NCBI GenBank assembly: GCA_964016885.1
Contig: OZ024741.1
Location: forward strand, 95,914,001-95,978,000
Direction: 5' to 3'
Length of the DNA: 64,000 nt
Source of the DNA: Eledone cirrhosa
Lineage: Eukaryota
The translations under genes were made by a program, and so were the position numbers. Shown here one piece after another: positions 29,498 to 59,607 of this stretch. Below the pieces are notes generated by a model. It ran no database searches. It was given only the letters and a program-made list of their open reading frames with translations, and was not told the DNA's origin. The stretch's first letter is position 1; every line of letters begins with the position of its first letter.

Positions 29498-29701
29498 CGG
29501 AGAAGATAGACGTGTGTTTGTTTCGCTCCTGCATTTTGTCGGAATTTATTACGAGAGGCGGTAGGTTTGTTTAAGTAACTTGTTATTTGTTGTATTTAAA
29601 CCCTCGCCTGGGCCTGCAGACGTTGGGTAAAATAAATTTCGCCCCTTTTTGGGGCGAAATTTAATAGTTATAATTTGTCGATAAAAAGTCGTTTAGTGAC
29701 A

Positions 29702-31513
29702 ATGGACGCCATTAATACGACGCATGCCACGCCCCCCAAGGAAAGTGACAGAGAGAAGGTAGCAGAACAACGCTGTAAGCCTTCCCTCCTCACTGCCGCA
29801 AAAGACACCACGGAATCAAAAGAAAAAATTGTGGAATTGGGTGAAAACCCCAAAAGTAACAATTACACAAACAAGAACAACAATGACAATAATAACACAA
29901 CCAACAAAAGCAACAATGACAATAACAACACAACCAACAACAGCAACAATGACAACACCAACAACGGAAAAAAGCAAGCCAACACGAATAACAACAACAA
30001 CAATGATAACAACACGAAAGAAAACGGACCCACAGCTGCAGTCTCCTTCGCACAGGCAGTCCGAGAAACGCAGACATACAAGGCACTGGACATCTCGATT
30101 GCCAAGAAATTGCTGAAAGAAGCAAGGAATTGTGTAAATTTCGAGGAAGGTGGGGAATTCACAATTACCTCCCCCGAAGAAATTAGAAGGGACACAGTCC
30201 CCAGGACTGTAATCTATAGGACAGTTTCGAACACGACTAGGAAACCGGCTCAATTGTCTCAAAGCGAAATTGAGCTGGTCCTAAGCAGTGCCTGGAAGGA
30301 TATCGATTTCATACAGAAAGGGAAACTGTATGGAAGCATATCTGTTTTAATGCAGGTTGAATTGGCGGCACGGAAATATTCTGTGTCGCCAATTGTATCC
30401 AAAGCATACACATTTTTCCCCACATATTTGGGGAAAAGAACTCAAAAGATAAGAATCTCGAGCATCAGGCCAAATGCGAGCATTTGATGGGTGCTAACGG
30501 GATTCTTAGAAGATGAGGACACAATCTTTTCGATAGGCGAATCCACCGGGGGCGTATTCGGCGGCAATAGCCTTGAAGTTCTGGTCCAAATGAGACCAGA
30601 ACGGATAGCAAGAATACCGCCGCGTGTGTCCCTGGACGGAGTCGCCTTCTTAAACATTTCTGTTGAGGGCAGGAGGCCTTCATGCTACCACTGTTCAAGA
30701 AGTGGTCACCTGAGGGCTTCCTGTCCTATTTTAAATGCCCCCCACAAAAAAAGACGCTTCTGCCCACCCCACACACAACAACACAACCACCACCACCACA
30801 ACAACAACCACAACAACACGAAAAAATAACAACACAAGACACTGTCCCACCCAACCCCTCCCCACCTAAAAAAAATACAAAAGAAAACACAACAAAACCC
30901 CAAAATATACCCGTCCCCAACAACACGGACGAGGACCCCTTATCGACGTCACCCAGTGACGACGAGGGAGAACCCTTTCAACCTGTAAAACGAAAGAAAA
31001 GAAGGCACCACATTAACAAAAATGCAACAAACACACAACCACCAGCACAAACAGAACAAACATCACAAACAAAAAACCCACCCCTCCCGAAAACATAACA
31101 CATACTACAAAACACAATCACACAAGAACAACAAACAAAAACAAACACAACACAACAAAAACAGTATACATACATCAACACAAACAACAAAACACTTGTG
31201 CAAACAATAGACAAAGACGAAGGGAAAAAATTCACCAACGCGGCGACTGAACCGCATTTAAAAATGATTAGGGTCCCAAAGGACACCTACGCAATGCTCA
31301 AAACCTTTCCCGATGACGTGGGGAACCCCTGTACTAGACCTAGCAACCGCGTCCTCTTGAAATATTTCCCCAGCACCACCCCAGACACCCCTTCCCCACC
31401 AAACACCCCCACCCCACCACACACTGATGACCCCACCACACCCCCCACCAAACAACCCCACCGACACCCCCATGGAAATTGTGCAGCCTGGTCCCCAGGA
31501 GACGGACAGGTAG
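29702..31513 (+). pseudogene. Copy A ORF1, gag-like CCHC zinc-knuckle protein, disrupted
   Basis: ATG at 29702 and knuckle CYHCSRSGHLRASC. Premature TGA at 30485 plus frameshifts. The homologous frame ends PMEIVQPGPQETDR-TAG at 31513. Confidence 0.88.
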
Positions 31514-31556
31514 GTGTCTTTTCCTTTTTCTCCACTCAAAACTCTTCACCACCAAC

Positions 31557-34500
31557 ATGGCTGTTATAAGAGTTGGATGTTTAAATGTGCGCAGCCTGGG
31601 GATGTACTGGAAGCAGGGCAAACTCTTAAATGACCTCAGGTCGCACAGAATGGATGTGATAGCTATTTGCGAGTCCAGGACCAGCAGCGAGCACCAACTG
31701 GCCCCCATCTTCGACGACTTTGAAATCTATGCATCTCTCTGTCAGCCGGGAGGTGGGGGCGGGGTGGTCGTTCTGCTGCGAAAACACCTGGGCCTCGCAA
31801 CACGGAAGGTACACCTGGACCGGAAGGGTCGACTGGTGGTTCTAGACGTCGGCAGTAGTGAAGGTGGAGCCTTCAGGCTGGTGGCAGCGTATGCCCCATC
31901 TGGGACACCGCGACAAGACATCTTCCAGCACCTAGAGACTTTTCTGGGAACATCTCGCTCCTTGCTTTTAGTGGGGGACTGGAATGGTATCCTGGATACA
32001 CGTTGGAACTAAGTAGGGGCATGTTCCGATAGAGGGGATGTAACAACCTCAAACGGTTAATCGGCCGATTTGATCTGGCCGATAGATATCGACGAGATTT
32101 TCCGACTGTGCCACTGTGGACGTGGACTAATTGTAGCGGAACATCTAGGTCGTACCTAGATAGGTTCCTTGTTAGAAATAAGGATAGGGACATATTAAGC
32201 TGTCCACGAATGTTCATGGTTGACTATTCGGATCACAAGTTGGTGACCGGAGTGGTCAACCTTGATAGAACCCATAGACAAGGACCCGGTTACTGGAAGC
32301 TAAACTTGTCCTTACCGACAAACAAAGCTTACAGTAAGCGGATTAGCCTCTAGTTAAGCAGCGGTTGACGGGGGTAATTGTCAACAGCAGGTGGTGGGGC
32401 TCTCTCAAGAAACTAATTAGAATAGAATCGATAGGTTTTAGTCAGGAATTAGCATCAGGTAGGAATAGAACTGAAAGGGAATTGATAGATAGAGTAGAAT
32501 AGGCGATTAGGAGTAGCAACGTGGCCGGCGTGCTGGCGTCAAGAACGGTCCTAGACCAGTTCTTTGATGCGAAGCACGAGGGCTACCTTGTCAGGAGTAA
32601 AATACGTGCTCTGGGTAACGAGGGAGCCAAAGCTGTTAGCTGGGCCCGAGTGACAGAGGCAAAAAGTGGAAACAAGTCCACAATTCGGTCTTTGAAGGAC
32701 CAGGATGGACGTGTGATCCTTGAACCTGAGTGGATGTGCGCGGCCTTTCAGCGGCGCTTTGCACGACTGTTTCGGAGGGGCGGCGGACCGGGTGGGGCCA
32801 TGGATTTCGGTCCATACCTCGACGGTCTGCCGCGGCTCTCGGACGAGGAGGCGAAGTCCTACGAAAGGCCGATTTCAGCCGCTGAAATAGAGGAAGCGCT
32901 GAGCCAATACGGCAAACGCAAATCTCCCGGTCTCGATGGTCTACCATACGAACTTTATTTAGCGATGCCGGACTTGTTCTCCGATCTCCTCGAGGCGGTC
33001 TCCTGCAACTGGCAACAGAACGGGAGAATTCCCAGTTCTGTGACCAAGGGCGTAGTCACGCTGGTGAGGAATGACGAGAACAAGGGGGATGACATAGATA
33101 ACTTCAGGCCGATAACTCTGCTAAACACAGAGTTAAAGATTTTGGCCACGGTGTTAGCCAAGGTGTTAGCTTGTCGTCGGGAACCTGGTGGGAGAAGCGC
33201 AGACATGCGCAATCCCGTCCAGGTCCATACACGACAACCTCCACCTCATGCGATACATCGTAGAGAGGGTAGGGAACGAACCCGGCTTTGGTGGGGCCCT
33301 GATCAACTTGCATCAATCTAAGGCATTCGATAGGGTCCACCATCGGTACCTGGATGCGGTGCTCGCGGCGGCAAGCTTCGGAACCGTTTTCAGGGGCTGG
33401 ATTGCTGCAATGAACAGCAGCAACACCTGCTCGAAGGTCAAGGTGAACGGCTGCCTCTCGGAGCCGTTCCAAATCGCGCGATCCCTCCGACAGGGATGCC
33501 CTCTCTCCTCCCTTCTGTATGTGCTGGCTCTCGAGCCACTACTACGGAAGTTGGAGCTGTTGCAGGGAATCCCCTTGGAACCGGGATTGCGGAAAGCGGT
33601 GTCGGCCTACGCCGATGACGAGACAGTAATAGTGTCGTGCGCCTCGGAAATCGGGCAGATCGGCACCTTACTGGAGGAACACGAAAGGTTTACAGGACCC
33701 AAGCTAAACCGGGACAAATCCGTCGGTTTGCAACTCGGAACGTGGAGAGGCAAACCGATGCCCTCCGACGGCGTCGTCGGACGCTGGACGGAGGGACCGG
33801 TGAAGCCTCTCGTGATGTGGTTCGGACCGGATCTCCAGGTGGAGAAAAGCGGGGACGAGGTAACGGGAAGGATGTTTGCACTCGCCCAGAAGTGGGCCGA
33901 GTGTAAACTATCCCTGAAAGGTCGAGCGGAGGTGGCGAACACTTATATAGCGTCCGTCATCTACTACCGCTTGACCGTTGTGCCTTGCCCAGCGAAAACG
34001 CTCGCCAAAATGAAGCGCGCGCTCTTCCGATTCCTTTGGAAGAAGCGGGCCCCTTTGGTGAGAAGATCCATCTGCTGTCAACACCCTCGAACGGAGGGCT
34101 GGAGATGCCGTGGCTGACGATGCGTAGACACGTATTAAGGCTACGGCACCTCCAGGTATTCCTCACCGGTCAGCCGGTGTGGACCCCTTTTGTGAGGGGA
34201 GCCTTTCCGAAACTCGTCTCACTCACCGAGCTGCAATCCTGGGTCAAGCAAATACCGAGAAAAGTGGGCGACTGGCACATTGAATGTGCCCAGGTGCTCA
34301 CGGCCCTCTGACAAGCGGATCCGGCAATCAGTGTAAACTCAACCTCAATATTCTATAGAGGGTTGGTGCGCAGCAAGTGCGACGACGCTCTCAGAGAGGC
34401 TCTGGGCATGGAGGAAGACGAGCTAGTCAGTCTGTTCGGTAGGACGTTTGGCCCGGGACCGATGGACAACTTCCAAAAGTCCCTGGCTTGGCAGTGCTAC

Positions 34501-34981
34501 CGAGGAGCTCTACTCGTTCGGGACAAGCTCTACAGACACGGGCGCCCGGGTAGGGACCCCTCGAAGAAGATCTGTCCGAGATGCGTGCGTGACGAAGAAA
34601 CAGTCGCGCACGCATTCGTACACTGCCCGGGAGTTGCTGACCTGTGGGGCTATGTGGAACGACTACTGTCGCGGGTGGGACCAATCCGGTTGACCACTGA
34701 GTACGTTGTCACGATCACCTCCCTTCAAAAACGAAGGAGAGGCGGTTTTCCTCTGTGTGATAGCTATGGCGAAAGAGGTTGTATGGTGGACGATGTTGAA
34801 AGGGCTGAGGTCAGACACTTTTCTCTCCGGCCAACAACTGGTCTTTTTTTTCAAGTACCATTTTAGAAGAAGGATGAGAATGGAGAGAGAGGTGCTCTAC
34901 CCCAGCAAGTTTTATGAAAAGTGGGTGAAAGTGGCGAGAATGGCCCGAGTGAATGGGCATTCTCTCTATATCAGCCTGTAG
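31557..34981 (+). pseudogene. Copy A ORF2, APE endonuclease-reverse transcriptase, disrupted
   Basis: MAVIRVGCLNVR, GDWN, SYLDRFL, SDHK, RPITLLN, QGCPLS, YADD and CPRC-x8-H-x4-C split over several frames by stops and indels. Confidence 0.93.
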
Positions 34982-35242
34982 GTGAGAGAGGAGAAGAAGG
35001 AGGAGAGGAAGGGAGCACCGGCTCTTTGTGCTCCTGAGGAGGAGGGTTGCACATTTTTTTCGGGGGTGTGTGGGACCCACGTCAACGCCCCCTCCCTATT
35101 GTGGACTTCGATTGTTGAATTTGATTTGCTATATGTTTTTACACGTCCTTTGAAATGTATGTAAACTACCCCTTGTATTTGTCCCAATCTTTGATTCCTT
35201 GGTGGCAAATAAATAGAAAGTTATCTATCTATCTATCCATCT

Positions 35243-37931
35243 CGTCAACAACAGGTGGTGGTGCTCTCAAAGAGAGGAAGTAGCAAGGCAGTAGCTTTAG
35301 AGAAAAACAAGACAGAGAAGGAATTTGTAGCCAAAGTAGAAGAGACATTTAGAAGTGGAAATGCAGCTTGTATTGTCAGAAGTAGAACACGTGCTCTGAG
35401 AATCGAAGGAGCGAAACCTGTTAGCTGGGCCCGAGTGGCAAAGACGAAAAGTGTCAGAAAATCCACAATTCGGTCTTTGAAAGACCAAGACGGACGCGTG
35501 CTACTTGAATCCAGGCAAATGTGCACGGCTTTCCAGCAGCACTTTGTACAACTGTTCGAGCAGAGCGGTGTGTCGGACGACGGCTTACCGGGACTCTCGA
35601 ACACCGATGCAGAGAGCTGCAAAAGGCCGATCACAGCCGCCGATATACAAGACCCCCTAGTCCACTGTGGGGAGCATAAATCACCCGGTCTAGATGGTTT
35701 ACCCTATGAGTTTTACATAGGCATGCCAGACTTGTTTCTGGCGTCCTCGAAGCGGTCCACTGCAACTGGCAGCAGAACAGGAGAATCGCCAGTTCTGTAA
35801 GCCGAGGCGTAGTAACGAGAACAAAGGGGACAACATAAGCAATTTCAGGCCCATAACTCTTCTCAACACGGAGCTGAAGATTTTGGCCAAGGTGTTAGCA
35901 ACGAGGCTGGCACTTGTCGTAGAGAGCCTGGCGCGGGAAGCACAAACGTGTGAAATCCCGACCACGTCCATACACGACAACATCCACCTCATGCAATACA
36001 TCATAGAGAGGGTGGGGTGTAAACCTGGCTTCGGTGGGGCTCTGATCAATTTAGATCAATCTAAGGCATTCGATAGGGCCGACCATCAATACTTGGACGC
36101 CGTTCTCAAGGCGGCCGGTTTCGAACCCGTCTTCAGAGGCTGGATTGCTGCCATGCACAGCAACATCTGCTCGGCAGTCAAGGTGAATGGCTACCTGGCG
36201 GAGCTATTCCAAATCACACGTTCCATCCGCCAGGGATGCCGTCTCTCCTCCATTCTGTATGTACTGACTCTCGAGGCATTACTGTGGAAGTTGGAGTTGT
36301 TGCAGGTCATCCTGATGGAACCAGTATTGCGAAAAGCAACGCTGGCCCATGCCGACGATGTGACCGTAATAGTGTCGAAAACTTCGGAAACCGGGGTGAT
36401 TGGTAACTTACTACAGGAATACGAAACACTGGCGGGAGCAAAACTGAACCTGGACATGTCAGTTGCAACTCTGCACGCGGAGAGGCAAGCGTCGTTGGGC
36501 GCTGGACGGAAGGACCGGTGAAATTGCTCGGGGTTTGGTTCGGTACAGACCTCCAGGTGAAGAAAAACTGGAACGAGATTGCAGCGAATGTATTTGCACT
36601 AACCCAGAAGTGGGCTGAGTGAAAACTTTCCTTAAAAGGTCGAGCAGAGGTTGCGAACACTTACATACCGTCCGTCATCTACTACCGCTTGACAGTTGTG
36701 CCTTGTCCCCGTGATCACTTCGCCAAAATGGAACGCCTACTCTTCAAGTTCTTTATAAGAAAAAGGTTCCATTGATGAGGAGATCCATCTGCTGCCAACA
36801 CCCTTCCAACGGAGGGCTGAGCATGCCGTGGCTGAGGATACGGAAACACGCACTGAGGCTACGCCATCTCCAGGTATTCCTGATCGGTGAACCCGTGTTG
36901 TCATCGTTTGTGAGAGAATTTTCCGCAACTCGTCTCGCTAACGGAGCTGCAGTCCTGAGTCAAGCAAAGACCGGAAATTGGCGCATGGCACCTCGAGTGC
37001 TCACAGTCCTCTATCAGGCAGACACGGCAATCAGCGGGGACTCCACTTCAACATTCTATAGAGGTTTAGTGGACGATAAATGCGACAACGTTCTCAGAGA
37101 GACTCTAGGTATCAAAGAGAACAAACTGACCAGTCTGTTCGGGAGGACTTTCCGTCCAGGACCTATGGATAACTTCCATAGTTATCTGGCCTGGCTGTGC
37201 TACCGAGAAGCTCTACTAGTTCGAGACAAGATGTACAGGCACTGACGCCCTGGCAGGGATCCTGCCAATAGAACCTGGCCAAGATGCGAGCGGGGTATTG
37301 AAACCGTTCTGCGCGCAATTGTACAGTGAGCAGGGATGACCGACCTATGGAACTATGTCGAACAGCCGCTGTCACGTGTGGGTCAAATCCAGTTGACTGC
37401 CGAGCCCATGGGAGGATCCCGCTGTCGCCTTTATTTAAAAACAAAGGAGAGGCGGTTTTCCCCTGTCTAATGGCTATGGCGAAAGAAAGAGGTAATATAG
37501 TTGACGAGATTAAAAGTAACGAGGACAGACACCTTCCTCTCCGGACAACAACTCATTTCCTTCTTTAAATACCACTTCAGAACGAAAATGAGAGTGGAGA
37601 GAAAGGTGCTGCATCCCCTTAAATTCGCTCAAAGGTGGGTAAATGTGGCGAAAATGGCTCGAGTGATTGTGCCTTCTCTGTATCTAAACCTGTAGGCTGA
37701 AGAAGACAAAAGAGAGGAGACAGGAGCACTTACAAATCATGCTCCTGGAGTCGAGGGTCATTCTATCTACAGGGCGTAAAACAACCCAATTGCAACATTC
37801 TCCCTACTGGGGATTTCGATTGTTATTTATTATTTTATAAATATTAAAACTTTTGTGTACACACTTAATTGTAAAATCCCCGCCATACGTCCTGTAATGT
37901 CCCATTTCTTATCCGCCCTTGTGGAAAAGAA
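35243..37931 (+). mobile_element. 5'-truncated, internally deleted copy B of the same lineage
   Basis: Starts mid-ORF2 (VNNRWW) directly after (TATC)n. DQSKAFDR, RQGC and HADD motifs, ORF2 stop at 37695 and a divergent 3' UTR followed by (ATCT)3. Confidence 0.92.
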
Positions 37932-37944
37932 ATCTATCTATCTA

Positions 37945-38323
37945 ACTATTTTTTCAAATACCACTTTGGAAGAAGAATCAGGATGGAGAGAGAGGTGCTG
38001 TACCCCAGCAAGTTTTATGAAAGGTAGGTGAAAGTGGCGAGAATGGCCCGAGTGAATGGGCCTTCTCTCTATATCAGCCTGTAGGTTGAGGAAAAAGAGG
38101 AAGAGGGGAAAGGGGTACAAACTCTTCGTACTCCTGGAGATGAGGGTTGCACATTTTTTCGGGGGTATCTGTTACCCATATGAACTGTCTCCCCCTATTG
38201 GGGAAAATCGACTAAATTTTTAAATTGCATTTGTGATAATATTTTACACGTTTTTATTGTATGTAAACTTCCCCCTTTGTATTTGTCCCCTACTTTTGTA
38301 CCCCTGTGGCTAATAAAGAAACA
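37945..38323 (+). mobile_element. Heavily 5'-truncated copy C (end of ORF2 plus 3' UTR)
   Basis: FFKYHFGRRIRMEREVL...GPSLYISL-TAG (38084), AATAAA at 38312, then (TATC)n. The 3' UTR is very similar to copy F. Confidence 0.92.
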
Positions 38324-43110: not shown

Positions 43111-44201
43111 TACATATGAACATATATATGAATATGGTATGTATGTCTAAAATATCTATCGGTATTGAAAACACCAACATTTCTGGCAGAAATCATGTTC
43201 ATAATTTACTTACATAAACAAATGCATATGCACATACACACGCAAGCCCGTGTGTCTGTGTATATATACTTGTGTTTCGACATTTACGTGCGTGTACATG
43301 TGCATGTATGTATGTACGCTTGTCTACATATTTAACAACTCCTTGCCTCTATTCTATTTCCCATCAACATTTAGGAGGCAATGATTGTTGATCAGTAGAA
43401 TTAGCAAGTTGGTGTGCGGTAGTCTGAGCATGCAAGGATCGGACGGAAGAAAATAAATAATTGAAAATCTGTATTTCTTCCACAGTACAATAACATACAC
43501 AGTGAGCCTGTTAGCGTGTGTCTTTGCCACCTTTTACATCAGCTACAGACTTGGATTGTATGTGAAAACAACTGATCATGTATCGTTTGTGACCTACCTA
43601 ATCATTAGCTTTTGTTCCTCACGGCATGTTGTCTGCCCATAGGTCAGTCATGGGTTATCAGACCTAGCATTAAAGGCATTCTAGCTATGGTCACCCATCA
43701 TTTTTCTATATGCAAGTATACTTTAGCTCACACTACGGCATTTAATATATATTTCCTCTTAAAAACAACAAAAACAAAAGCAACAATAAAAAACATGGTA
43801 CTGAGAAGTTTCAAACATGTGTGTGTGGGTGAAACAATGAGGGAGATTTTACGTTTGTGGTCACTCAACTTGTTAAATATTAGAACATCTTTCTGATATT
43901 AGAGTTTACCGTCTTTCGGGAAGGTATGGGATAATGTAGTCTGAGATAAACTGTTTGCATGTACCAAAGATCGTGACGGTCACGGGTAGAATATCTTTAC
44001 TGATTGTTCTGTTGAAATATGACTGACAGTGAAGTACAAGATCGTATAGATAGCTAAATCATATAGTACGCATGATCAATGTTTCTGATATACAACCAGT
44101 GTCTGTGTCCTCTGTAAAACGTCGCAAAAAGACCAACTTTAATAGTAAATCATCATCCCTTTAATGAAAATCTCATTGATCTACTTCTGTATTACGACTT
44201 T

Positions 44202-44777
44202 TAATAATATAAGAACTGCTACATAAGGTGGTGGATTTAATGATATAAGAACTGCTACATAAGGTGGTGGATTTAATAATATAAGAACTGCTACATAAGG
44301 TGTTGGATTTAATAATATAAGAACTGCTACATAAGGTGTTGGATTTAATAATATAAGAACTGCTACATAAGGTGGTGGATTTAATAATATAAGAACTGCT
44401 ACATAAAGTGTTGGATTTAATAATATAAGAACTGCTACATAAGGTGTTGGATTTAATAATATAAGAACTGCTACATAAGGTGGTGGATTTAATAATATAA
44501 GAACTGCTACATAAGGTGGTGGATTTAATAATATAAGAACTGCTACATAAGGTGGTGGATTTAATAATATAAGAACTGCTACATAAGGTGTTGGATTTAA
44601 TAATATAAGAACTGCTACATAAGGTGTTGGATTTAATGATATAAGAACTGCTACATAAGGTGGTGGATTTAATAATATAAGAACTGCTACATAAGGTGTT
44701 GGATTTAATAATATAAGAACTGCTACATAAGGTGTTGGATTTAATAATATAAGAACTGCTACATAAGGTGGTGGATT
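44202..44777. repeat. 36-bp minisatellite, 16 copies
   Basis: Unit taataatataagaactgctacataaggtgKtggatt; 576 bp equals 16 x 36. Confidence 0.97.
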
Positions 44778-47664: not shown

Positions 47665-47670
47665 AATCTA
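47581..47670 (+). repeat. (TATC)n, 5' flank of cluster 2
   Basis: Directly visible; abuts copy D. Confidence 0.97.
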
Positions 47671-47896
47671 GCTGTCGTCTGTTCTACAGTGTGGATGTAA
47701 TTCACTTCGCGCAGAAGTTTTGTTCAAATTTATTGCGGAAATTTTGTGAGTTCAAATTTAATTTTGATACAATTGTGTAGCTTGACCCCCCGTCTGAACT
47801 GTCAGGCGGTGGGTCAGCTCATCTTTACCCCTCCTAGAGGTGAAAAACCTGTTTTAAAAAATTTTGTGGCAAAAAAATTTCAATCGTCTAACAGAA

Positions 47897-49795
47897 ATGT
47901 TAAACGCAGCGAACGAAAATAGTGGTGGGGGGACAGCGGTAAGAGTTGTAAGCTCGCACGCTTTAGTCCCCCCTTCCTTCCCAACTAACGTCATAGAGAA
48001 GGAAGGAAAAATTAAAATAAAAACAGACGAATCTGCGGAGAAAAAAAATGACGAAAACACAAATCTGGACATGGATTCCAACAACGAAAAAAAAAAATTT
48101 GAAAAATTGCATGACAATACTAATAACACAAACAAAGACACAACAAACACAAAAATAACATTTGAAAATAACACCATAACAGAAAGCAAAGCAGACGACA
48201 AGATTTCATTTGCACAGAAAACAAAGAAATCTTTGACTTATATACCGGAAAATATTTCAGATGTGGCACGAAGAATCACAGACGCCAAACAATACATAAG
48301 TGAAGGAGAGAATGGTATTTTATCGGTAAAAATGCCTCAAGAATTCACCAAAGACATTGAAAGCCGAACGGTCAAGTTTCGGACCATCAACAACAGTACA
48401 AAAAAACCTGAACAGCCTTCTCAAGCAGATATCAAAACAGTACTCACAGAAGTACTTAATGAAACCACTTTCATAAGAAAAGACAGACTGTATGGAAGCC
48501 TAGCAATTATCATGAAGAACGAATCGGCGGCAAAAAAATGTGCTTTGTCACCGATTCGTTCGAAAAATTTTACCTTTTATCCATCTTATATGGGTAAAAG
48601 AACTCAACGCATATGGCTGGATGCAATGATGCCAGATGTGGACTACTGCTGGCTCATAGCTGGCTTCATCGATCCAGTGAATGACAACGTGATTTCCATT
48701 GGGAAAACCACAGGCAATGCGTTCAGTGGAACAGGTATAGAGCTGGTAGTGCAAATGAAGCCTGAACGCATCGCCCAAATACCCGACAGAAACCTATTAG
48801 AGGACCACGGGTATATAAACATTAGCGTGGAGGGGAGAAGGCCGTCCTACCATATCTGTGCAGGCAGAGAGCACCTGAAGGCCGCTTGTCCCCAACTCAA
48901 CAAAAAGAAAACCCTGCTACCAACACCAGCTCCACCACCACCACCACAACAGATAAACAAACAACAAAACTCAGTCCCACCCAACCCGTCCCTCAGTAAA
49001 ACCACACCACCACCACAACACAAACAGTCACAACACATTACCCCAAAACAAAATACAGGCCCACCCAACCTCTCACTCAATAAAACAACACAACCACCGC
49101 AGACACAACACACAACACAGTCTAACATAGTGACATCCATCTCCCCCACAAAGAAAACCAACACGGAAACATTACCAGCAAACATACCTCTTCCCTCCAA
49201 CACTGAAGATAACCCAACGAATTCGGAGGAAGAAACGGAGTCCTTCAGACAGATTAAAAGGAAAAAAAGAAAACATGTGCAAAACACACAAGGCCAAACA
49301 ACCCCCACCCAAATCTCAACACAATCCAACAAAACAGAAAACACCCCTCCAGCAACAAACAAAACCAAACCTGCCCCTCCCCTCTTCGAAACACTCACAC
49401 CATCCGAAAAAAAGACATTACACTATACTTACATCAACAGAAACAATAATAAATTAAATGAACTCATATACAATAATCCTTCGGTACAAACCGAAGGTGT
49501 AAACTTTGTTTCTTCAGAAAACTACCCACATTTAAAACTAATAAAGATCCCAATGAACCTCTACCAAAAACTAAAAAAGGATTTTAAGGAGGACGTAGGA
49601 CCACCCTCTGTCAAACCCATAAACCGCGTCCTACTAAAAAGCTTTCCCCCTCCCCTTCCCCTCCCCAACACAACTCCAAACACCCCAACCCCACCACACA
49701 CTGACGACCCCACACCACCACAAGACACCCCTTCACCCAACACCTCCGACCCCATGGAAGTCGTGCAACCCGAACCCCGGGAAGCGGAAAGGTAG
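47897..49795 (+). CDS. Copy D ORF1, gag-like nucleic-acid-binding protein
   Basis: Open frame from first ATG 47897. Knuckle reads YHICAGREHLKAAC (first Cys to Tyr), then a P/T/Q-rich linker, KRKKRK and the conserved C-terminal block. Confidence 0.9.
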   Translation: MLNAANENSGGGTAVRVVSSHALVPPSFPTNVIEKEGKIKIKTDESAEKKNDENTNLDMDSNNEKKKFEKLHDNTNNTNKDTTNTKITFENNTITESKADDKISFAQKTKKSLTYIPENISDVARRITDAKQYISEGENGILSVKMPQEFTKDIESRTVKFRTINNSTKKPEQPSQADIKTVLTEVLNETTFIRKDRLYGSLAIIMKNESAAKKCALSPIRSKNFTFYPSYMGKRTQRIWLDAMMPDVDYCWLIAGFIDPVNDNVISIGKTTGNAFSGTGIELVVQMKPERIAQIPDRNLLEDHGYINISVEGRRPSYHICAGREHLKAACPQLNKKKTLLPTPAPPPPPQQINKQQNSVPPNPSLSKTTPPPQHKQSQHITPKQNTGPPNLSLNKTTQPPQTQHTTQSNIVTSISPTKKTNTETLPANIPLPSNTEDNPTNSEEETESFRQIKRKKRKHVQNTQGQTTPTQISTQSNKTENTPPATNKTKPAPPLFETLTPSEKKTLHYTYINRNNNKLNELIYNNPSVQTEGVNFVSSENYPHLKLIKIPMNLYQKLKKDFKEDVGPPSVKPINRVLLKSFPPPLPLPNTTPNTPTPPHTDDPTPPQDTPSPNTSDPMEVVQPEPREAER

Positions 49796-49828
49796 GTCTC
49801 TACACTCTCCTTTGGCTCTGCCGCCCAC

Positions 49829-52800
49829 ATGGATGTGTTAAGAGTAGGATGTTTGAATGCACGTGGCCTGGGCTCAACTTGGAAGCAAGCAAAGCTGCTA
49901 AATGACCTTAGGTCATGTAGTATAAATGTAATGGTTATCTGTGAGACTCGAATCAGCGTCGTGCGCAGCTGGCCCCCACCTTCGATGACTTTGAGGTGCA
50001 TGCATCTCTCTGTCAACCTGGAGGTGGGGGTGGGGTTGTCGTACTGCTGCAAAAACACCTGGGTCTTGCCGTACAAGTTGTGCACTCGGACCCGGAGGGT
50101 CGCTTGTTGGTGCTAGACGTTGGCAGTAGTGAAAGTGCGGCCTTGAGACTGGTTGCCGTCTACTCCCATTTCGGAGCTGAACGGCCCGACTTCTTCCAGA
50201 GTTTGGAGACTTTTCTGGGAACGTCGCGTTCCCTGATTCTAGCGGGGGATTGGAATGACATCCTAGATGCACGTTGGGACTATGCAGGAGCATGTCCTAA
50301 TAGAGGGGGGTGTAACATCCTCAAGGGGTTACTCGACCGTTTTAACTTGGTCGATAGATATCGACTAGATTTTCCAACTGTGCCCACCTGGACTTGGAGA
50401 AACCACAGTGGTCAATCTAGATCGTACTTAGATAGATTCTTAGTTAGAAGTAAGGATAGGGACATATTAAGCTGTCCAGAAATGCGCACGGTTGGCTACA
50501 CGGATCACAAATTAGTGACCTGCGTAGTCAATCTCGAGAAAACACATAAACAGGGTCCCGGTTACTGGAAACTTAATTTATCTTTACCGGCAAAAGAGAC
50601 TTACAGAAACCGGATTAGCAGATTAGTTAAGGAGAGGTTGACGGGTGCAATCGTCAACAACCGATGGTGGGCATCTCTCAAAAGAGAGATTAGAACAGAA
50701 TCAATAAGTTATAGCAAGATGTTAGCTGCCGATAGGAATAGAAACGAGAAAGAATTAACAGGTAAATTAGAAGAGGCAATCAAGAGCGAAGATGTGGCCA
50801 GAGTGCTGGCATCGAGGACGGCCTTGAACCAGTTTTTCGATGCAAAGCACGAAGGCTGCGTCATTCGAAGTAAAATACGTGCTCTAGGTAATGAAGGGGC
50901 CAAAGCCGATGGCTGGGCCCGCGTGACAGAAGCTAAGAGTGGAAATCGATCCACCATCCGGTCGTTGCAAGACGAAGATGGACGGGTGATCCGGGAGCCT
51001 AAGCAGATGTGCGAGGCCTTTCAAAGGCACTTTGCCCGATTGTTCGGGGGAGGCGAGGGTCCGGGCGGGGGCGTGGATTTCGGTCCATACCTCGACGGCC
51101 TGCCGCGTCTCTCGAGCGAAGAGGCAGAGTCCTGCGAGGGACCAATCTCGGCTGATGAGATCGGAGATGCGCTGAGCCAATGCAGCAGACTCAAATCTCC
51201 AGGTCTCGATGGTATAACTTACGAACTTTATTTAGCAATGCCGGTCTTCTTCTCGGAACACCTCGAAGCGGTCTACTGCAATTGGCAGCAGAACGGGAGA
51301 ATTCCTTGTTCTGTAGCCAAGGGCGTAGTCACGCTGGTGAGGAAGGACGAGAACAAGGGAGATAGTATAAATAATTTTCGGCCCATAACCCTGCTAAACA
51401 CAGAGTTAAAGATTTTGGCCAAGGTGTTAGCAAAAAGGTTGGCGCTTGTCGTGGGTGGCCTGGTGGGAGATGCGCAGACATGTGCTATCCCATCCAGGTC
51501 CATTCACGATAACCTCTACCTCATGCGATACATCATAGAGAGGGTTGGCAACAAACCCGGCTTCGGTGGGGCCCTGATCAACTTGGATCAGTCTAAGGCC
51601 TTCGATAGGGTCGACCATGGTTACCTGGATGCGGTGCTAGCGGCGGCTGGGTTCGGTCCTGTTTTCAGAGGCTGGATCACTGCCTTACATAGCAACCACA
51701 TCTGTTCTAGGATCAAGGTGAACGGCTACCTTTCGAAGCCGTTCGAAATCACACGATCCATTCGACAGGGGTGCCCTCTCTCCTCCCTTCTGTACGTATT
51801 GACTCTCGAGCCTTTACTGAGGAAGTTGGAGTTGTTGCAGGGTATCCCCCTGGAACCAGGATTGAGCAAAGCGGTGTCGGCCTACGCCGATGACGTAACA
51901 GTAATGGTATCGACCGACTCGGAGATCGAGGCGATCGGTACCTTACTGGAGGAGTACGAAAGGTTGTCAGAAACGAAACTGAACCGGGAAAAATCCATCG
52001 GGCTGCAACTCGGAACGTGGAGACGCAGACCGATGCCTCCTGACGGTGTCGTCGGACACTGGACGGAGGGCCCGGTAAAGTTGCTTGGGGTCTGGTTTGG
52101 ACCGGACCTCCAGGTGGAAAAGAACTGGAACGAGGTTACGAACAAGGTGTTTGCACTAACCCAGAAATGGGCCAAGTGTAAGCTGTCCCTAAAAGGCCGG
52201 GCGGAGGTGGCGAACATTTACATAGCGTCCGTCACTTACTACCGCCTGACTGTCGTGCCTTGCCCTAAGGAAACACTCACCACCATGGAACGCATGCTCT
52301 TCCAATTTCTTTGGAAGAAGCGCCCTCCTATGGTGAGAAGATCCATCTGCTGCCAACAACCTTCGAAAGGAGGGCTGGGGATGCCGTGGTTGATGATGCG
52401 TAGGCACGCATTAAGGCTACGGCACCTACAGGTATTCCTCACTGGTCAACCGGTGTGGGCTCCGTTCGTGAAACGAGCCTTTCCGAGACTCGTCTCGCTC
52501 ACCGAGCTACAGTCCTGGGTCAAGCAAAGATCCGGAAAACTGGGAGACTGGCACACTGAGTGTGCTCAGGCGCTCAGGGCTCTGTGGCAAGCGGGCCAGG
52601 CCATCGGTGGAGAATCCACCTCATCATTCTATAGAGGGCTGGTGGCTAGCAGGGGCGATGACACCCTTGGAGAGTCGCTGGACATGGAGGAAGACGAACT
52701 GGCCAGCCTGTTCGGTAGGACTTTCGGCCCAGGATCAATGGACAACTTCCAGAAGTCACTGGCCTGGCAGTGCTACCGGGGTGCTCTACCCGTTCGAGAG

Positions 52801-53265
52801 AGGCTCTACAGACACGGGCGCCCGGGCAGGGATCCCTCAAAAACGATTTCCCCTAGATGCGTGCGTCACGAAGAAACCGTTGCGCACGCATTGGTGCAAT
52901 GTCCGGGCGTGGCTGATCTGTGGGGCTACGCCGAACGACTGCTGTCGCGGGTAGCGCCGATTAAATTGACCGCCGAGTCCGTGATGACAATCAAACCGCC
53001 TCCCCTCTTCACAAAGGAAGCAAAGGCGGTTTTTCTGTGCGTAATAGCCATGTTGAAAGAGGTTGTTTGGTGGACACGATTGAAAGGTCTGAGGTCAGGC
53101 AACTTCCTCTCTGGCCATAGTCTGGTCTACTTCTTCCGATATCACTTCGGAAGAAGGATAAGAATGGAGAGAGAGGTGCTTGGCCACAGGCAGTTTTATG
53201 AAAGGTGGGTGATAGTGGCGAGAATGGCTCGTGTAAATGGGCCTTCTCTATATACCATCCTGTAG
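49829..53265 (+). pseudogene. Copy D ORF2, APE-RT, with a single frameshift near 49965
   Basis: MDVLRVGCLNARG starts at 49829. One base is missing relative to copy E (gtgcg-cagctg). The remaining 1089 aa are open with YADD. The C-terminal finger reads SPRC instead of CPRC. Confidence 0.92.
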
Positions 53266-53479
53266 GTAAAGAAGTAAAGGAGAGGGGAGCACCTTCTCCA
53301 TGTGCTCCCCGGGCAAAGGATTGCACACTTTTTCGGGTGTGTGTGCAACCCCCATCACGTCCCCTCCCTTTTGAGGTTATTTTCGATTATTTTCATGTTA
53401 CACCCTTTTTACTCGATTATATGTAAACTCCACCTTTGTATTTGTCCCTTCTTTTTATGCCTTTATGGTAAATAAAGAA

Positions 53480-53536
<57 letters not shown>

Positions 53537-53737
53537 GATAGAGTAAGACACGCTTCGCATCGGCTCCGCTATTCCATCGGGATTTACCCTTACTATTGTA
53601 AGTACCGGATAAATTTTTTAGAGCAACACATTTGGAACACTAACCCCTGTTATTTAGGGAAACATTTTTGCATTTACCCCCTTTTTAGGGGGTAAAATAA
53701 ATATCTATTTTTGCCGAAAAATTTCTTTCTTGGCAGC

Positions 53738-55573
53738 ATGGCGGAAAAGATGGCAGACATGTCTGCCATTAGCTCTGCCACGCCCCCCAAGTCTGAAGAA
53801 CAAAAAATAATTACAACAAAATTAGACATTGAAACAAACAAACAAAATGAAAAAACAAATGTTAAGGAAAATGAGCAAACAGAAAACAAACAAACAGAAA
53901 ATAATACAAATAACGACAGGGCAACTTTCGCCCAGAAAACAAAGCAATCCATTACATACACACCAATTGACCTAACTGCCGCCAGAGAAAAACTGGCCGA
54001 AGCAAAGAAACATATTGTTTTGGGGGAGAACGGAATGTTTTCCATTAACTCCCCCCCAGAATTCAAGAAAGCCAGAGCAGAAAACACAGTTATATACAGA
54101 ACTATACTAAACCAGTCAAGAAAGCCAGCACAGCCCAGCCAAATGGAAATAGAGTTAGTCCTAAAAGACTATATGAAGAATATTCTCTTCATACGAAAGG
54201 ACCGACTCTATGGCAGCATTTCGGTCCTAACAAGAGACAAAGAAACGGCGGTTCAGCTTTCCCTAAGCCCACTCTCGTCGACAACATATAGCTTCTATCC
54301 CTCCTACATGGGTAGAAGAACACAGAGGGTAAAAGTAAAAACAATGCTGCCCACAATGGACTTCTGGTGGGCTATTGCTGGCTTCATTGATATGGGCGAA
54401 GACACTATGCTGTCAATGGGGAAGGCAACTGGAGATGCGTTCCTGGGAATGGGCCTCGACATACTAGTCCAAATGAGGCCCGAAAGAATAGCACAAATCC
54501 CGGATCGCATCTGGCTGGATGACCTTACCACAATAGACATAATTGTAGAGGGGAGAAGACCAGCATGCTATTTATGCATGGAAAGGGGACACGTTAAGGC
54601 TAACTGCCCGAAACGTATCCCCCAAAAAGGACTATTGCCCACACCCACCACAAACAGTACACCAGCACCACCCACCTCCAAAAATACACTAATACCACAC
54701 ACAGCAAACAAAATACAGACACCACCAACCACAAACACAACACAAACATCACCACCACCAGCACCAAACACAAGCACGACACAAAAATCACCACCACCAA
54801 CCACAACACAAACATCACCACCACCATTACCAACCACAAGCACGACACAAACATTACCACCACCACCACCACAAAACCCATTCCAAACAAATAATAAAAA
54901 AAACAGTAACAAATCTACCCCTCCCGCAAAAAAAAAACAACCACACAACACGTCCCTCCCACCTAGCGCTGAAGAGTTTCCCCCAACTTCTGAAGAAGAA
55001 GGAGGAGAAGCCTTCAGACAAGTTAAAAGAAAAAAAAGAAAACACACACCCAGCACACCACAAATAACCCACACACAAACACCAACTCCAATCAAAAACA
55101 CCCCACCCTCAACAAACAAAAATAAATCTGCGCCTCCCCTCTCCGAAACATTGACAGCATCACAAAAAAAGACGTTGCAATACACATATATAAATAAAGA
55201 AAACAAAAAACTGGTTAAATTAATAAACAATAACCCTATGGTGCAGACCGAAGGGCCAAACTTTATCTCAACAGAGAACTTCACCCATTTAAAAATGATA
55301 AAGGTCCCTCTGGACCTTTATCGTTCCTTAAAAGAACAATTTAGACGGGACGTGAGCCCCCCCTGTTTAAAACCGTTGAATCGCGTCCTCTTGAAAGATT
55401 TCCCCATAACCGCCCCTCTCCCTGACACAACTCCAAATACCCCAACCCCACCACACACGTGTACCCCCACACCACCACAAAACATCCCTCCACCCAACAC
55501 ACCTGATGCCATGGAAATTACGCAACCCGGAGAGGTAAGTGCTTTTCTTTCTTCACTTTCAACACCAAAATAG
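53738..55573 (+). CDS. Copy E ORF1, gag-like CCHC zinc-knuckle protein
   Basis: ATG at 53738, intact knuckle CYLCMERGHVKANC, P/T-rich linker and EEEGGEAFRQVKRKKRKH. Homologous to A and D ORF1. Confidence 0.92.
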   Translation: MAEKMADMSAISSATPPKSEEQKIITTKLDIETNKQNEKTNVKENEQTENKQTENNTNNDRATFAQKTKQSITYTPIDLTAAREKLAEAKKHIVLGENGMFSINSPPEFKKARAENTVIYRTILNQSRKPAQPSQMEIELVLKDYMKNILFIRKDRLYGSISVLTRDKETAVQLSLSPLSSTTYSFYPSYMGRRTQRVKVKTMLPTMDFWWAIAGFIDMGEDTMLSMGKATGDAFLGMGLDILVQMRPERIAQIPDRIWLDDLTTIDIIVEGRRPACYLCMERGHVKANCPKRIPQKGLLPTPTTNSTPAPPTSKNTLIPHTANKIQTPPTTNTTQTSPPPAPNTSTTQKSPPPTTTQTSPPPLPTTSTTQTLPPPPPQNPFQTNNKKNSNKSTPPAKKKQPHNTSLPPSAEEFPPTSEEEGGEAFRQVKRKKRKHTPSTPQITHTQTPTPIKNTPPSTNKNKSAPPLSETLTASQKKTLQYTYINKENKKLVKLINNNPMVQTEGPNFISTENFTHLKMIKVPLDLYRSLKEQFRRDVSPPCLKPLNRVLLKDFPITAPLPDTTPNTPTPPHTCTPTPPQNIPPPNTPDAMEITQPGEVSAFLSSLSTPK

Positions 55574-58500
55574 ATCAATTGAGAGTTGGCTGTTTGAACG
55601 CGCGTGGCCTGAGCTCAGCTTGGAAGCAAGCAAAGCTTCTAAGTGACCTCAGGTCACAAAGTATAGATGTGATGGTTGTTTGCGAGAGTCGGATCAGCAG
55701 CGTGAGACAGCTGGCGCCCGCCTTCGATGACTTTGAGATGCACGCATCTCTCTGTCAACCCGGAGGCGGGGGGGGAGTTGCCGTACTGCTGGATAAACGT
55801 CTGACTCTCGACGTACAGATTGTTCACTCGGACCCGGGGGGTCGATTACTGGTGCTGGACGTCGGAGGTGGTGAAGGCGGGGCTTTCAGACTGGTCGGTC
55901 TTTATGCTCCCTTCGGGGCGGAGAGAGCCGACTTCTTCCAACGTCTGGAGACTTTTCTAGGAACGTCGCGTTCCCTGCTTTTAGTGGGGGACTGGAATGG
56001 AATCCTAGATGCGCGTTGGGACTATGCAGGGGCATGTCCCGATAGAGGGGGGTGTAGCAGCCTCAAGGGGTTACTCGATCGATTCGACCTGGTCGATAGA
56101 TTTCGACTAGATTGTCCAACTGCGCCAACCTGGACCTGGGCAAACCGCAGTGGACAATCTAGATCGTACCTAGATAGGTTTTTGGTTAGGAGTAAGGATA
56201 GGGACGTATTTAGTTGTCCAGAACTGATCATGGTTGGCTATTCAGATCACAAATTAGTGACCTGCGTGGTCAACCTTGATAGAACGCATAGACAGGGTCC
56301 CGGTTACTGGAAGATGAACTTGTCCTTACCGACAAAGAAAGATTACAGAAACCGGATTAGTAGCTTAGTTAAGATGCGGTTGACGGGAGCGATCGTCAAC
56401 AGTAGGTGGTGGATATCTCTAAAGAGAGAGATTAGAGTAAGTTCGATAGGTTACAGTAAGGAACTAGCGGCGAATAGAAATAGGAGGGAAAGGGAGTTAA
56501 CAGATAAACTAGAAGAGGCGATTAGGAGCGGAGACGTAGCCAGAGTGTTAGCGACGAGAACGGCATTGAGCCAGTTCTTTGACGCGAAGCACGAAGGCTG
56601 CGTTGTCCGAAGTAAAATACGTGCTTTAGGAAACGAGGGGACCAAAGCTGTTAGCTGGGCCCGCGTGACAGAAGCCAAGAGTGGGATTAAATCCACCATT
56701 CGGTCTTTGCGAGACCAGGATGGACGGGTGATCCTTGAACCTGAGCGAATGTGCGAGACCTTTCAAAGGCACTTTGCTCGACTGTTCGGAGGTGGCGGGG
56801 GGCCGGACGGGGATGTGGACTTCGGTCCATACCTCGACGGTCTACCGCGTCTTTCGAGCGGCGAAGCGGAGTGCTGCGAAGGGCCAATCACAGCCACTGA
56901 AATCGGGGAAGCGCTCAGCCAATGCAGCAGACGCAAATCCCCGGGTCTCGATGGTCTACCATACGAACTTTATTTAGCTATGCCGGTCTTGTTCTCCGAA
57001 CTCCTCGAGGCTGTCTATTGCAACTGGCAACAGAACGGGAGAATTCCCTGTTCTGTGACCAAGGGCGTGGTCACGCTAGTGAGGAAGGACGAGAGCAAGG
57101 GGGACGACTTAAGTAACTTTAGGCCCATAACTCTGCTGAATGCAGAGTTACAGATTTTGGCCAAGGTGTTGGCGAAGAGGTTGGCGCTTGTGGTGGGTGG
57201 TTTGGTGGGAGACGCGCAGACATGCGCTATCCCGTCCAGGTCCATTCACGACAACCTCCACCTCATGCGATACATCATAGAGAGGGTTGGCTACGAACCC
57301 GGCTTTGGTGGGGCCCTGATCAACTTGGATCAATCTAAGGCGTTCGATAGGGTCGACCATGGTTACCTGGATGCGGTGCTAGCGGCGGCGGGCTTCGGAC
57401 CCGTTTTCAGGGGCTGGATTTCTGCCATGCACAGTGGCAACATCTACTCTAGGATTAAAGTAAACGGCTACCTCTCGGAGCCGTTTCAAATCACCCGATC
57501 CATCAGACAGGGGTGCCCCCTCTCCTCCCTTCTGTACGTATTGACTCTCGAGCCACTGCTGCGGAAGTTGGAGTTGCTGCGGGGCATACCCCTGGAACCG
57601 GGATTGCACAAAGCGGTCTCGGCCTATGCCGACGACGTAACAGTAATGGTGGCGGACGCCTCGGAAATCGGGGCGATCGCCACCCTACTGGAGGAATACG
57701 AAAGGCTGACGGGGGCTAAGCTGAACCAGGACAAGTCAGTCGGTTTGCAACTCGGAACGTGGAGGGGCAAACCGATGCCGTTAGACGGTGTCGTCGGGCG
57801 GTGGACGGAGGGCCCGGTGAAGCTGCTCGGGGTCTGGTTCGGACCGGACCTCCAGGTGGAGAAGAATTGGGGCGAGGTGACGAGCAGGGTGTTTGCGCTG
57901 ACCCAGAAGTGGGCCAAGTGCAAACTATCACTGAAAGGTCGGGCGGAGGTGACGAACGCTTACATAGCGTCCGTCATCTACTACCGCCTGACCGTCGTGC
58001 CTTGCCCCAAGGAAAAGCTCACCATCATGGAACGCATGCTCTTCCAGTTCCTCTGGAAGAAGCGGCCTCCCATGGTGAGGAGATCCATCTGCTGCCAGCA
58101 CCCTTCGAAAGGAGGGCTGGGTATGCCGTGGCTGTTGATGCGTAGGCACGCATTGAGGCTACGGCATCTACAGGTATTCCTCAACGGTCAGCCGGTGTGG
58201 GCCCCGTTTGTGAGGCGAGCCTTCCCACAGCTCGTCTCGCTCACCGAACTGCAATCCTGGGTGAAGCAAAGACCGAGAAAACTGGGCAACTGGCACACTG
58301 AGTGTGCCCAGGCGCTCACGGCTATCTGGCAAGCGGACCCGACTGTCAGTGGAGAATCCACCTCGACATTCTATAGAGGGTTGGTGGCTAGCAGGGGCGA
58401 CGACACCCTTGGAGAGTCGCTAGGCATGGAGGAGGACGAACTGGCCAGCCTGTTCGGTAGAACTTTCGGCCCGGGACCCATGGACAACTTCCAGAGGTCC

Positions 58501-59007
58501 CTAGCCTGGCAGTGTTACCGGGGGGCTCTGCCCGTTCGAGAAAAGCTCTACAGACACGGGCGCCCGGGCAGGGATCCCGCGAAAAAGATCTGTCCCAGAT
58601 GCGTGCGCGACGAGGAAACCGTTGCGCATGCACTGGTACACTGCCCGGGCGTTGCCGATCTGTGGGGCTACGTCGAACGACTGCTGTCGCGTGTGGCGCC
58701 GATTCGATTAACCGCCGAGTCTGTGGTGAACATCAAGCCGCCTCCTCCCTTCAGAAATGAAGCAGAGGCGGTCTTTCTGTGCGTAATAGCCATGATGAAA
58801 GAGGTTGTGTGGTGGACGCGCCTGAAAGGTCTGAGGTCGGGTGACTTTCTCTCCGGCCATCACCTGGTTTACTTCTTCCGATACCACTTCGGAAGAAGAA
58901 TCAGGATGGAGAGAGAAGTGCTTGGTCCCAGACAGTTTTATGAAAGGTGGGTGAAAGAAGCGAGAATGGCCCGTGTAAATGGGCCTTCTCTCTACATTGT
59001 TCTGTAG
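55570..59007 (+). CDS. Copy E ORF2, APE endonuclease plus reverse transcriptase plus C-terminal CCHC finger
   Basis: Uninterrupted frame with CLNARG, CE, YAP, GDWN, SYLDRFL, SDHK (APE); RPITLLN, DQSKAFDRV, RQGCPLS, YADD (RT); CPRC-x8-H-x4-C. The codon aligned to the A/D start is ATA at 55570. Confidence 0.95.
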   Translation: MDQLRVGCLNARGLSSAWKQAKLLSDLRSQSIDVMVVCESRISSVRQLAPAFDDFEMHASLCQPGGGGGVAVLLDKRLTLDVQIVHSDPGGRLLVLDVGGGEGGAFRLVGLYAPFGAERADFFQRLETFLGTSRSLLLVGDWNGILDARWDYAGACPDRGGCSSLKGLLDRFDLVDRFRLDCPTAPTWTWANRSGQSRSYLDRFLVRSKDRDVFSCPELIMVGYSDHKLVTCVVNLDRTHRQGPGYWKMNLSLPTKKDYRNRISSLVKMRLTGAIVNSRWWISLKREIRVSSIGYSKELAANRNRRERELTDKLEEAIRSGDVARVLATRTALSQFFDAKHEGCVVRSKIRALGNEGTKAVSWARVTEAKSGIKSTIRSLRDQDGRVILEPERMCETFQRHFARLFGGGGGPDGDVDFGPYLDGLPRLSSGEAECCEGPITATEIGEALSQCSRRKSPGLDGLPYELYLAMPVLFSELLEAVYCNWQQNGRIPCSVTKGVVTLVRKDESKGDDLSNFRPITLLNAELQILAKVLAKRLALVVGGLVGDAQTCAIPSRSIHDNLHLMRYIIERVGYEPGFGGALINLDQSKAFDRVDHGYLDAVLAAAGFGPVFRGWISAMHSGNIYSRIKVNGYLSEPFQITRSIRQGCPLSSLLYVLTLEPLLRKLELLRGIPLEPGLHKAVSAYADDVTVMVADASEIGAIATLLEEYERLTGAKLNQDKSVGLQLGTWRGKPMPLDGVVGRWTEGPVKLLGVWFGPDLQVEKNWGEVTSRVFALTQKWAKCKLSLKGRAEVTNAYIASVIYYRLTVVPCPKEKLTIMERMLFQFLWKKRPPMVRRSICCQHPSKGGLGMPWLLMRRHALRLRHLQVFLNGQPVWAPFVRRAFPQLVSLTELQSWVKQRPRKLGNWHTECAQALTAIWQADPTVSGESTSTFYRGLVASRGDDTLGESLGMEEDELASLFGRTFGPGPMDNFQRSLAWQCYRGALPVREKLYRHGRPGRDPAKKICPRCVRDEETVAHALVHCPGVADLWGYVERLLSRVAPIRLTAESVVNIKPPPPFRNEAEAVFLCVIAMMKEVVWWTRLKGLRSGDFLSGHHLVYFFRYHFGRRIRMEREVLGPRQFYERWVKEARMARVNGPSLYIVL

Positions 59008-59239
59008 GTGAAGAAGTGAAGAGGAAAGGGGGAGCGCCTCCTCTCTGGGCTTCCCCCGCGAAAAGAGTTGCACACTTTTCGGGGGTATGTGCAATCCCCA
59101 ACACGCCCCCTCCCTTTTGAGGACTTTTTATTGTTATATTATTATTGTTATTCCTTTTTTCTTTACTCGATTTATGTAAACTCCCCCACTGTGTAAATGT
59201 CCCCTTCTTTTGTGCCCTCGTGGCAAATAAATAGAAATT

Positions 59240-59276: not shown

Positions 59277-59542
59277 ATGGGCCTTCTCTCTATATCAGCC
59301 TGTAGGTTGAGGAAAAGGAGGAGGAGAGGAAAGGAGTACAAGCTCTTCGTACTCCTGGAGATGAGGGTTGCACATTTTTTTCGGGGGTCTGTGTTACCCA
59401 TATAAACTGTCTCCCTCTATTGGGGAAAATCGACTAACTTTTAAATTCCATCTGTGATAACATTTTACACGTTTTTATTGTATGTAAACTTCCCCCTTTG
59501 TATTTGTCCCCTTCTTTTGTGCCCCTGTGGCTAATAAAGAAA
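59277..59542 (+). mobile_element. Copy F, essentially 3' UTR only
   Basis: atgggccttctctctatatcagcctgtag (stop 59305) plus a 3' UTR nearly matching copy C, AATAAA at 59533 and TATC repeats on both sides. Confidence 0.92.
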
Positions 59543-59607
59543 TATATCTATCTATCTATATATCTATCTTTCTTTCTTTCTTTCTCTATTTCTATCTATC
59601 TAGCTGT

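Follow-up and report, generated by a model that had tools for sequence, protein, structure and literature searches.

A conserved splice-donor-like site at the ORF1 end of Tx1-like LINEs in Eledone cirrhosa, and possible removal of ORF2 as a retained intron

The window (the whole stretch of DNA analysed, 64,000 nucleotides, positions 95914001-95978000 of contig OZ024741.1 of Eledone cirrhosa) contains six copies of a two-ORF non-LTR retrotransposon, with (TATC)n runs between them. Copies A, D and E are full length, while B, C and F are 5'-truncated. The features are listed below in window positions; genome-wide counts given later refer to the 3.0-Gb genome.

47665..53479, + strand: copy D, full-length L1-group (Tx1-like) LINE with (TATC)n runs on both sides
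47897..49795, + strand: ORF1 of D, 632 aa, with a degenerate CCHC knuckle at aa 318
49448..49453, + strand: AATAAA in ORF1 of D, 344 nt upstream of the donor, one of several
49789..49797, + strand: 5' splice-site-like motif of D, AAG|GTAGGT, with the GT at 49792-49793
49793-49795, + strand: ORF1 stop TAG of D, overlapping the donor
49792-53265, + strand: candidate intron of D, filled by ORF2
49798..49828, + strand: pyrimidine-rich inter-ORF spacer, up to the ORF2 ATG of D
49829..53265, + strand: ORF2 of D, with APE endonuclease, RT and C-terminal Cys region
49905..49915, + strand: alternative near acceptor in ORF2 codons 26-29, family form GACCTCAG|GTC, in copy D TTAG|GTC
53244..53266, + strand: candidate far acceptor, a pyrimidine-rich run plus CTGTAG|G, its AG being the ORF2 stop
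53266..53479, + strand: 3' UTR of D and candidate terminal exon, with a purine-rich start and two stem-loops
53471-53476, + strand: AATAAA in the 3' UTR of D
53536..59239, + strand: copy E, full length
53738-55573, + strand: ORF1 of E, with an intact CCHC knuckle
55535, + strand: donor of E, GAG|GTAAGT, phase 0
55570-59007, + strand: ORF2 of E, starting at ATA; the acceptor ends at 59007
29498..35222, + strand: copy A, full length, decayed; donor 31510, ORF2 ATG 31557, acceptor end 34981
35240..37930, + strand: copy B, 5'-truncated, of a diverged family; ORF2 end 37695
37940..38323, + strand: copy C, 5'-truncated; ORF2 end 38084
59278..59543, + strand: copy F, 5'-truncated, with a 3' UTR of the type found in C; ORF2 end 59305

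Since the six copies are related by descent, they do not represent six independent events. ORF2 of D carries a frameshift near 49966-49978, and A is broken at several places. ORF2 of E has no ATG; its ATA at 55570 overlaps the ORF1 stop and lies 36 nt past the donor. This ATA-stop overlap (55570-55573) was present in 30 of 30 near-identical copies of family E, which suggests that this recently active family reinitiates after termination independently of AUG. The 5' UTRs of A, D and E (29498-29701, 47665-47896 and 53536-53737) and the N-terminal part of their ORF1s share little or no nucleotide similarity, unlike their ORF2s, which are 78-82% identical, suggesting replacement of 5' ends. No Rfam match was found in 29000-60000 of the window. 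The window also holds a 36-bp minisatellite (16 copies, 44200-44777) and a satellite with a 19-bp unit (~205 copies, 60139-64000) that runs off the window end.

The ORF2 product matched the Pfam families Exo_endo_phos and RVT_1 above cut-off and zf-RVT below cut-off, and its best PDB match was human L1 ORF2p (residues 8-855, E 7e-48). An ORF2 with APE endonuclease, RT and C-terminal Cys region, an upstream nucleic-acid-binding ORF1, the lack of LTRs and frequent 5' truncation are features of the L1 group. ORF1 is 611-632 aa long and had no Pfam match; its knuckle reads CX2CX4HX4C in E and is degenerate in D. Among its Atlas neighbours, zf-CCHC was found in 75% of members and a ZCCHC3-type RBD at 0.89. 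ORF1 proteins of Tx1 elements typically carry a CCHC zinc knuckle or an RRM-like domain. When insertion ends were inspected by eye, all 20 D copies ended at an ATCT/TATC-type junction or nearly so, and 30 of 30 G copies ended in (ATT)n. In its microsatellite targets and its ORF1 knuckle the element resembles members of the Tx1 clade (PMC4494074), and it is therefore called Tx1-like within the L1 group here. The nearest named relatives were unannotated proteins of Argonauta hians and Octopus species, and word-index searches with ORF1p returned no match or the query alone. The group has thousands of copies in the genome, with 8,744 matches to a degenerate ORF2-start pattern. Its families were compared through 20 representatives whose ORF2s are 63-97% identical; some families are represented by a single decayed copy. 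A passage of PMC8967140 describes an L1-Tx1 expansion in coleoids.

A preliminary description of this DNA had pointed to a strong splice donor at the ORF1 end of every full-length copy. Letters and positions agreed in all three, with CAG|GTAGGT at 31510 (A), AAG|GTAGGT at 49792 (D) and GAG|GTAAGT at 55535 (E). The site was also the top-scoring one among ~290 GT dinucleotides in each copy (1/290 in A, 1/294 in D and 1/266 in E), as scored with a general metazoan donor matrix rather than one trained on host introns. The exact 26-mer spanning the ORF1 end and donor of D has 579 copies in the genome. Among the first 100 listed of the 8,744 ORF2 starts, 93 had G|GT[AG][AG]GT 20-55 nt upstream as judged by eye; the donor was mutated in four of the other seven and cut off in the display in three. 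Two more listings aimed at rarer families gave the donor pattern likewise. Of the fetched copies, 16 of 20, and 9 of 10 in a second set, had the donor as their top-ranking site among ~300 GT. For family B a single 5' end was found, with the donor changed from G to A.

On a tree of the 20 representatives, counted without N and its weaker GTAATT, donor positions -1, +2, +5 and +6 did not change at all, +1 changed once, in the lone B copy, and +3/+4 changed only between A and G. Positions flanking the donor changed 2-7 times. An exchange of A and G at +3/+4 keeps the pairing with the 5' end of U1. Relative to the ORF1 frame, the donor falls in phase 2 in A, D, I, J, K, T, G, N and most C, in phase 1 in H, H2, M, M2, M3 and a minority C form, and in phase 0 in E. 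Because it is kept in all three phases, neither the ORF1 stop codon nor a protein motif explains it; together with the restriction to changes compatible with U1 pairing, this indicates selection for U1 binding rather than a side effect of the stop codon. The alignment of many family members, which had been proposed as a check, thus found the donor kept across the group independently of the ORF1 stop. The spacer 3' of the donor was 71-87% pyrimidine in 20 of 20 representatives.

Outside this genome, distant metagenome relatives (mostly <35% identity) had a rank-1 donor in none of the 13 scorable among 80 loci, with ranks of 2-131. Two of seven outside ORF1 proteins with the C-terminal motif end in G-K(-S), like the phase-1 families, and at the protein level Argonauta ORF1p ends in P-E-G-K-S, as would be encoded by G|GT AAG T. 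These endings are a hint that the donor may be older than this genome.

It is very unlikely that the motif is unrelated to the spliceosome, serving ORF1 termination and ORF2 re-initiation or being kept by descent. Its place next to the ORF1 stop, ahead of the pyrimidine spacer and the ORF2 start, would suit such a role, and the ATA start of family E overlapping the ORF1 stop suggests coupled translation here. However, the motif is kept in all three phases, even in E where the stop is 36 nt away, and it tolerates only U1-pairing changes whereas the adjacent spacer changes 2-7 times. Nor does a stable structure form around it (z +0.9 to +1.5).

The acceptors described for the window were also found in place, with CTGTAG|G ends at 34981, 37695, 38084, 53265, 59007 and 59305. 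The predicted introns of the full-length copies measure 3,472-3,474 nt. By a crude pyrimidine score, the AG of the ORF2 stop ranked first of 371 in D, tied first of 375 in E and tied third of 369 in A. The proposed coincidence of the ORF2 stop with an acceptor-like AG was seen in all six window copies and in most families, but it is not universal, as G and G', a young and intact lineage, end in TAA|A and have no AG at the ORF2 stop. In H the TAG is followed by T or A. Among the first 100 listed, 85 had TAG|G at the ORF2 end (by eye, with a pattern that undersamples G/G'), and the stretch after TAG|G was 68-96% purine.

Conservation did not single out this acceptor. The third base of the ORF2 TAG changed once on the 20-representative tree; since 14 of 30 comparable synonymous A/G sites changed once or less, the TAG is not conserved in excess. 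Three internal YAG sites of ORF2 had an equal or better mean score and were equally conserved. G and G' have a T-rich CAG acceptor candidate in the 3' UTR, and because the same CAG is present in N, which keeps TAG|G, it is not necessarily a compensation. L252-L255, which lack TAG|G, showed no G-type CAG, but these are decayed or truncated copies and say little about a 3' UTR acceptor. Contigs from four runs of unrecorded kind, compared with L191 (a 3' part of a D copy plus a full E copy), gave no donor-to-acceptor joint among the 15 listed of 179 joints, and we base no claim on them.

Two other candidates at the ORF2 end were dropped. 'Family P' (CAG|GTAA past the ORF2 end, 106 matches), considered as an acceptor kept without a stop, proved to be the LINE 3' end inside both arms of a palindromic element of ~800 bp. 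This foldback, MITE-like element (L250 5347-6139; L251 5297-6106) carries in its arms the last ~30 codons of the LINE and part of its 3' UTR, and the 106 arm matches genome-wide include many inverted pairs. A hairpin at the ORF2 end marking unspliced RNA for RT was unsupported, as 24 of 98 ORF2 windows fold equally well.

The reading frame of the predicted join is the best support for the far acceptor. In the true frame, the joined ORF1 ends in Arg-stop in A and D and in V-K-K-stop in E, exactly as had been predicted. The proposed rebuilding of the stop thus holds for these copies and is prompt in 11 of 16 families, but it is not a general property, as K, T, B, N and most C read through the join for a further 28-100 codons. 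A stop within 3 codons past the join was found in 11/16 families in the true frame vs 7/32 control frames (Fisher p 0.004; label permutation p 0.02), the test leaving out J2 and K2, which have indels, and the minority phase-1 C form. A version including that C form gave 9/14, and with relatives collapsed to 10 lineages the count was 6/10 (p about 0.1). The phase-1 families H, H2, M, M2 and M3 reach a prompt stop via five different exon-2 starts. Because a junction at or just before the ORF1 stop leaves no junction downstream, such an mRNA would be expected to avoid nonsense-mediated decay.

Could the donor be spliced mainly elsewhere, to the site near ORF2 codon 28, to an internal ORF2 site or beyond the element? 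We consider this unlikely. An intron ending at the near site, GACCTCAG|GTC, ~110-135 nt past the donor, would be of ordinary length; YAG is present there in 19 of 19 aligned representatives, and codons 26-28 are synonymously invariant against a baseline chance of 0.13-0.18 per codon, although about one such triplet is expected somewhere in 1,145 codons by our estimate. The pyrimidine tract is weak, however, with intervening AGs, and the join would produce an in-frame ORF1-ORF2 fusion without the first endonuclease motif in phase-2 families and a frameshift in the others. No near-acceptor genomic copies were found in D, E or J/K/T.

The preliminary description had further suggested that the spliced RNA could be retrotransposed as a HAL1-like, ORF1-only element. 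That prediction failed in the six family groups searched, with no junction copy in D, E, I, J/K/T, G or G'. In D, I and J/K/T together, no spliced copy was found vs 2,387 counted unspliced copies. Family D had neither a far junction nor any other continuation vs 579 unspliced copies; I had no spliced copy and one point mutant vs 303; J/K/T had no spliced copy and seven point or insertion mutants vs 1,505, K variants with the exon-2 start GTA being missed by the pattern. No spliced copy was found in E, with 748 first-look candidates, or in G, with four mutants in a search that did not include the near acceptor, and in G' there was no copy joined to the 3' UTR acceptor. Any insertion of spliced RNA longer than ~235 nt would show the join. 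Splicing is not refuted by the absence of spliced copies, given the preference of L1 proteins for the RNA that encodes them, as stated in a passage of PMC5860796. Since the 3' UTR stem-loops would stay in the spliced RNA, the model needs strict cis action or a low level of splicing.

A selected donor, a weakly conserved acceptor and the lack of spliced copies would all be covered, with no further assumptions, if U1 bound the ORF1 end without splicing to the ORF2 end and suppressed poly(A) cleavage in the A-rich final part of ORF1, allowing full-length RNA to form. As the whole explanation this is possible but doubtful; such a shield could also act alongside splicing. The 400 nt preceding the donor contained 28 AATAAA or ATTAAA vs 13-15 expected, with occurrences in 17 of the 20 representatives, which are related and not independent. 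Elsewhere the hexamers were below expectation (20 vs 28-37 further upstream and 10 vs 19-23 in ORF2). As they coincide with conserved Asn/Lys/Ile-rich protein motifs, coding constraint may be behind the excess. A shield would leave the in-frame stops after the far join unexplained, and a near-perfect donor left unpaired would be expected to find some acceptor.

On balance, a copia-style production of an ORF1-only mRNA by splicing out ORF2 is the best reading, and we hold it to be somewhat probable. U1 snRNP would bind the conserved 5' splice site at the ORF1 end, and in part of the transcripts the spliceosome would join this donor to the acceptor at the ORF2 end or, where that acceptor has been lost, to one in the 3' UTR. 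ORF2 would leave as a retained intron of ~3.45 kb, yielding a short ORF1-only mRNA, while the unspliced RNA would be both the message for ORF2p and the template for insertion. With ORF2p acting in cis, as is proposed, the spliced RNA would not be copied into the genome. Judged from the DNA, binding of U1 at the ORF1 end is highly probable. The donor motif is real and its letters are under selection; splicing from it is plausible but unproven, and for its use with the far acceptor our confidence is moderate. A role in the ORF1p:ORF2p ratio and a strict cis preference are suggested by analogy only. More tentatively, we may be dealing with an octopod LINE lineage in which ORF2 is a regulated retained intron, the stop is re-formed at the junction, the U1 site also shields the full-length RNA from early polyadenylation and the spliced RNA is kept strictly out of retrotransposition, a retrovirus- or copia-style strategy that would have evolved independently and might be shared with Argonauta.

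Several known systems bear comparison. In Drosophila copia, a Gag-only RNA arises by removal of an intron of ~3 kb covering POL, according to an account in PMC5580714 (citing Yoshioka 1990). The predicted product here is similar, as the enzyme region would be removed to leave an mRNA for the structural protein only, and the donor is conserved at the end of the structural-protein ORF as expected of a copia-type arrangement. However, copia is an LTR element with one ORF, whereas here the element is bicistronic and non-LTR, ORF1 and ORF2 are already separate and splicing is only predicted. For Arabidopsis EVD, passages of PMC5580714 describe U1 as promoting the short RNA and blocking premature termination, and for barley BARE1 PMC3735527 mentions a subgenomic GAG RNA. 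A conserved donor after the structural gene is common to these and to our elements, but EVD and BARE1 are LTR elements that use a short intron plus premature termination or a frameshift, and their enzyme ORF is not wholly removed.

Human L1 is an L1-group element with functional splice sites, where ours are predicted. In PMC5860796, sections on L1 splicing and SpIREs describe a 5' UTR donor whose use is rare and harmful and which is retained because of a RUNX3 site, as well as spliced RNAs found as genomic copies. Here, in contrast, the donor is at the ORF1 end and bears signs of selection for U1 pairing, and the families searched yielded no spliced copies. The predicted splice product resembles HAL1 (half-L1), an ORF1-only product as outlined in PMC5753468, but HAL1s are genomic elements and none was found in the six family groups tested. 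The Tx1 elements Kibi and Koshi, targeting the microsatellites (TC)n and (TTC)n in the description given in PMC4494074, share the two-ORF L1-group build and microsatellite insertion; the targets here are different, (TATC)n, (ATT)n and others, and that description mentions no splice signal. In HIV-1, a poly(A) signal in the 5' LTR is silenced by the major splice donor, which lies 195 nt downstream of it, as reported in part of PMC3694450. Here too a putative U1 site lies a few hundred nt downstream of AATAAA, but HIV-1 silences a duplicated LTR site and the targets here would be hexamers inside a coding region. We found no report of an ORF2-intron or U1-shield design in any LINE in the literature, Repbase and supplements being outside the scope of the search; the main text of PMC9115989 on octopus brain LINEs contains neither 'splic' nor 'Tx1'. 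The design works like copia or EVD subgenomic expression, yet the element is not a member of those LTR families.

In LINEs, poor translation of the second ORF on a single bicistronic RNA is thought to set the ORF1p:ORF2p ratio. The selected U1 site found here, in a LINE group of high activity, would be a second, splicing-based solution or a U1 shield against internal poly(A) signals. If spliced RNA is made, its complete absence from thousands of genomic copies would serve as a natural gauge of cis preference. Host transcripts may be affected too, since near-consensus donors accompany at least 8,744 ORF2 starts.

Further observations concern the families as a whole. Two sub-clades differ in their targets, (TATC)n-type vs (ATT)n; the runs at the ends of K copies are (TGTC)n-like, and the flank in which I copies end is not a repeat. 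Some copies (L200, L209) look recombinant between families. Copies of family I seem clustered toward contig ends; on C1 (443 Mb), all 27 among the matches listed were within 31 Mb of the start or 12 Mb of the end. In the family alignment, synonymous change was strongly reduced (ratio 0.13-0.3) at ORF2 codons ~469-480, 522-534 and 561-581, which are possibly RNA elements inside the RT region.
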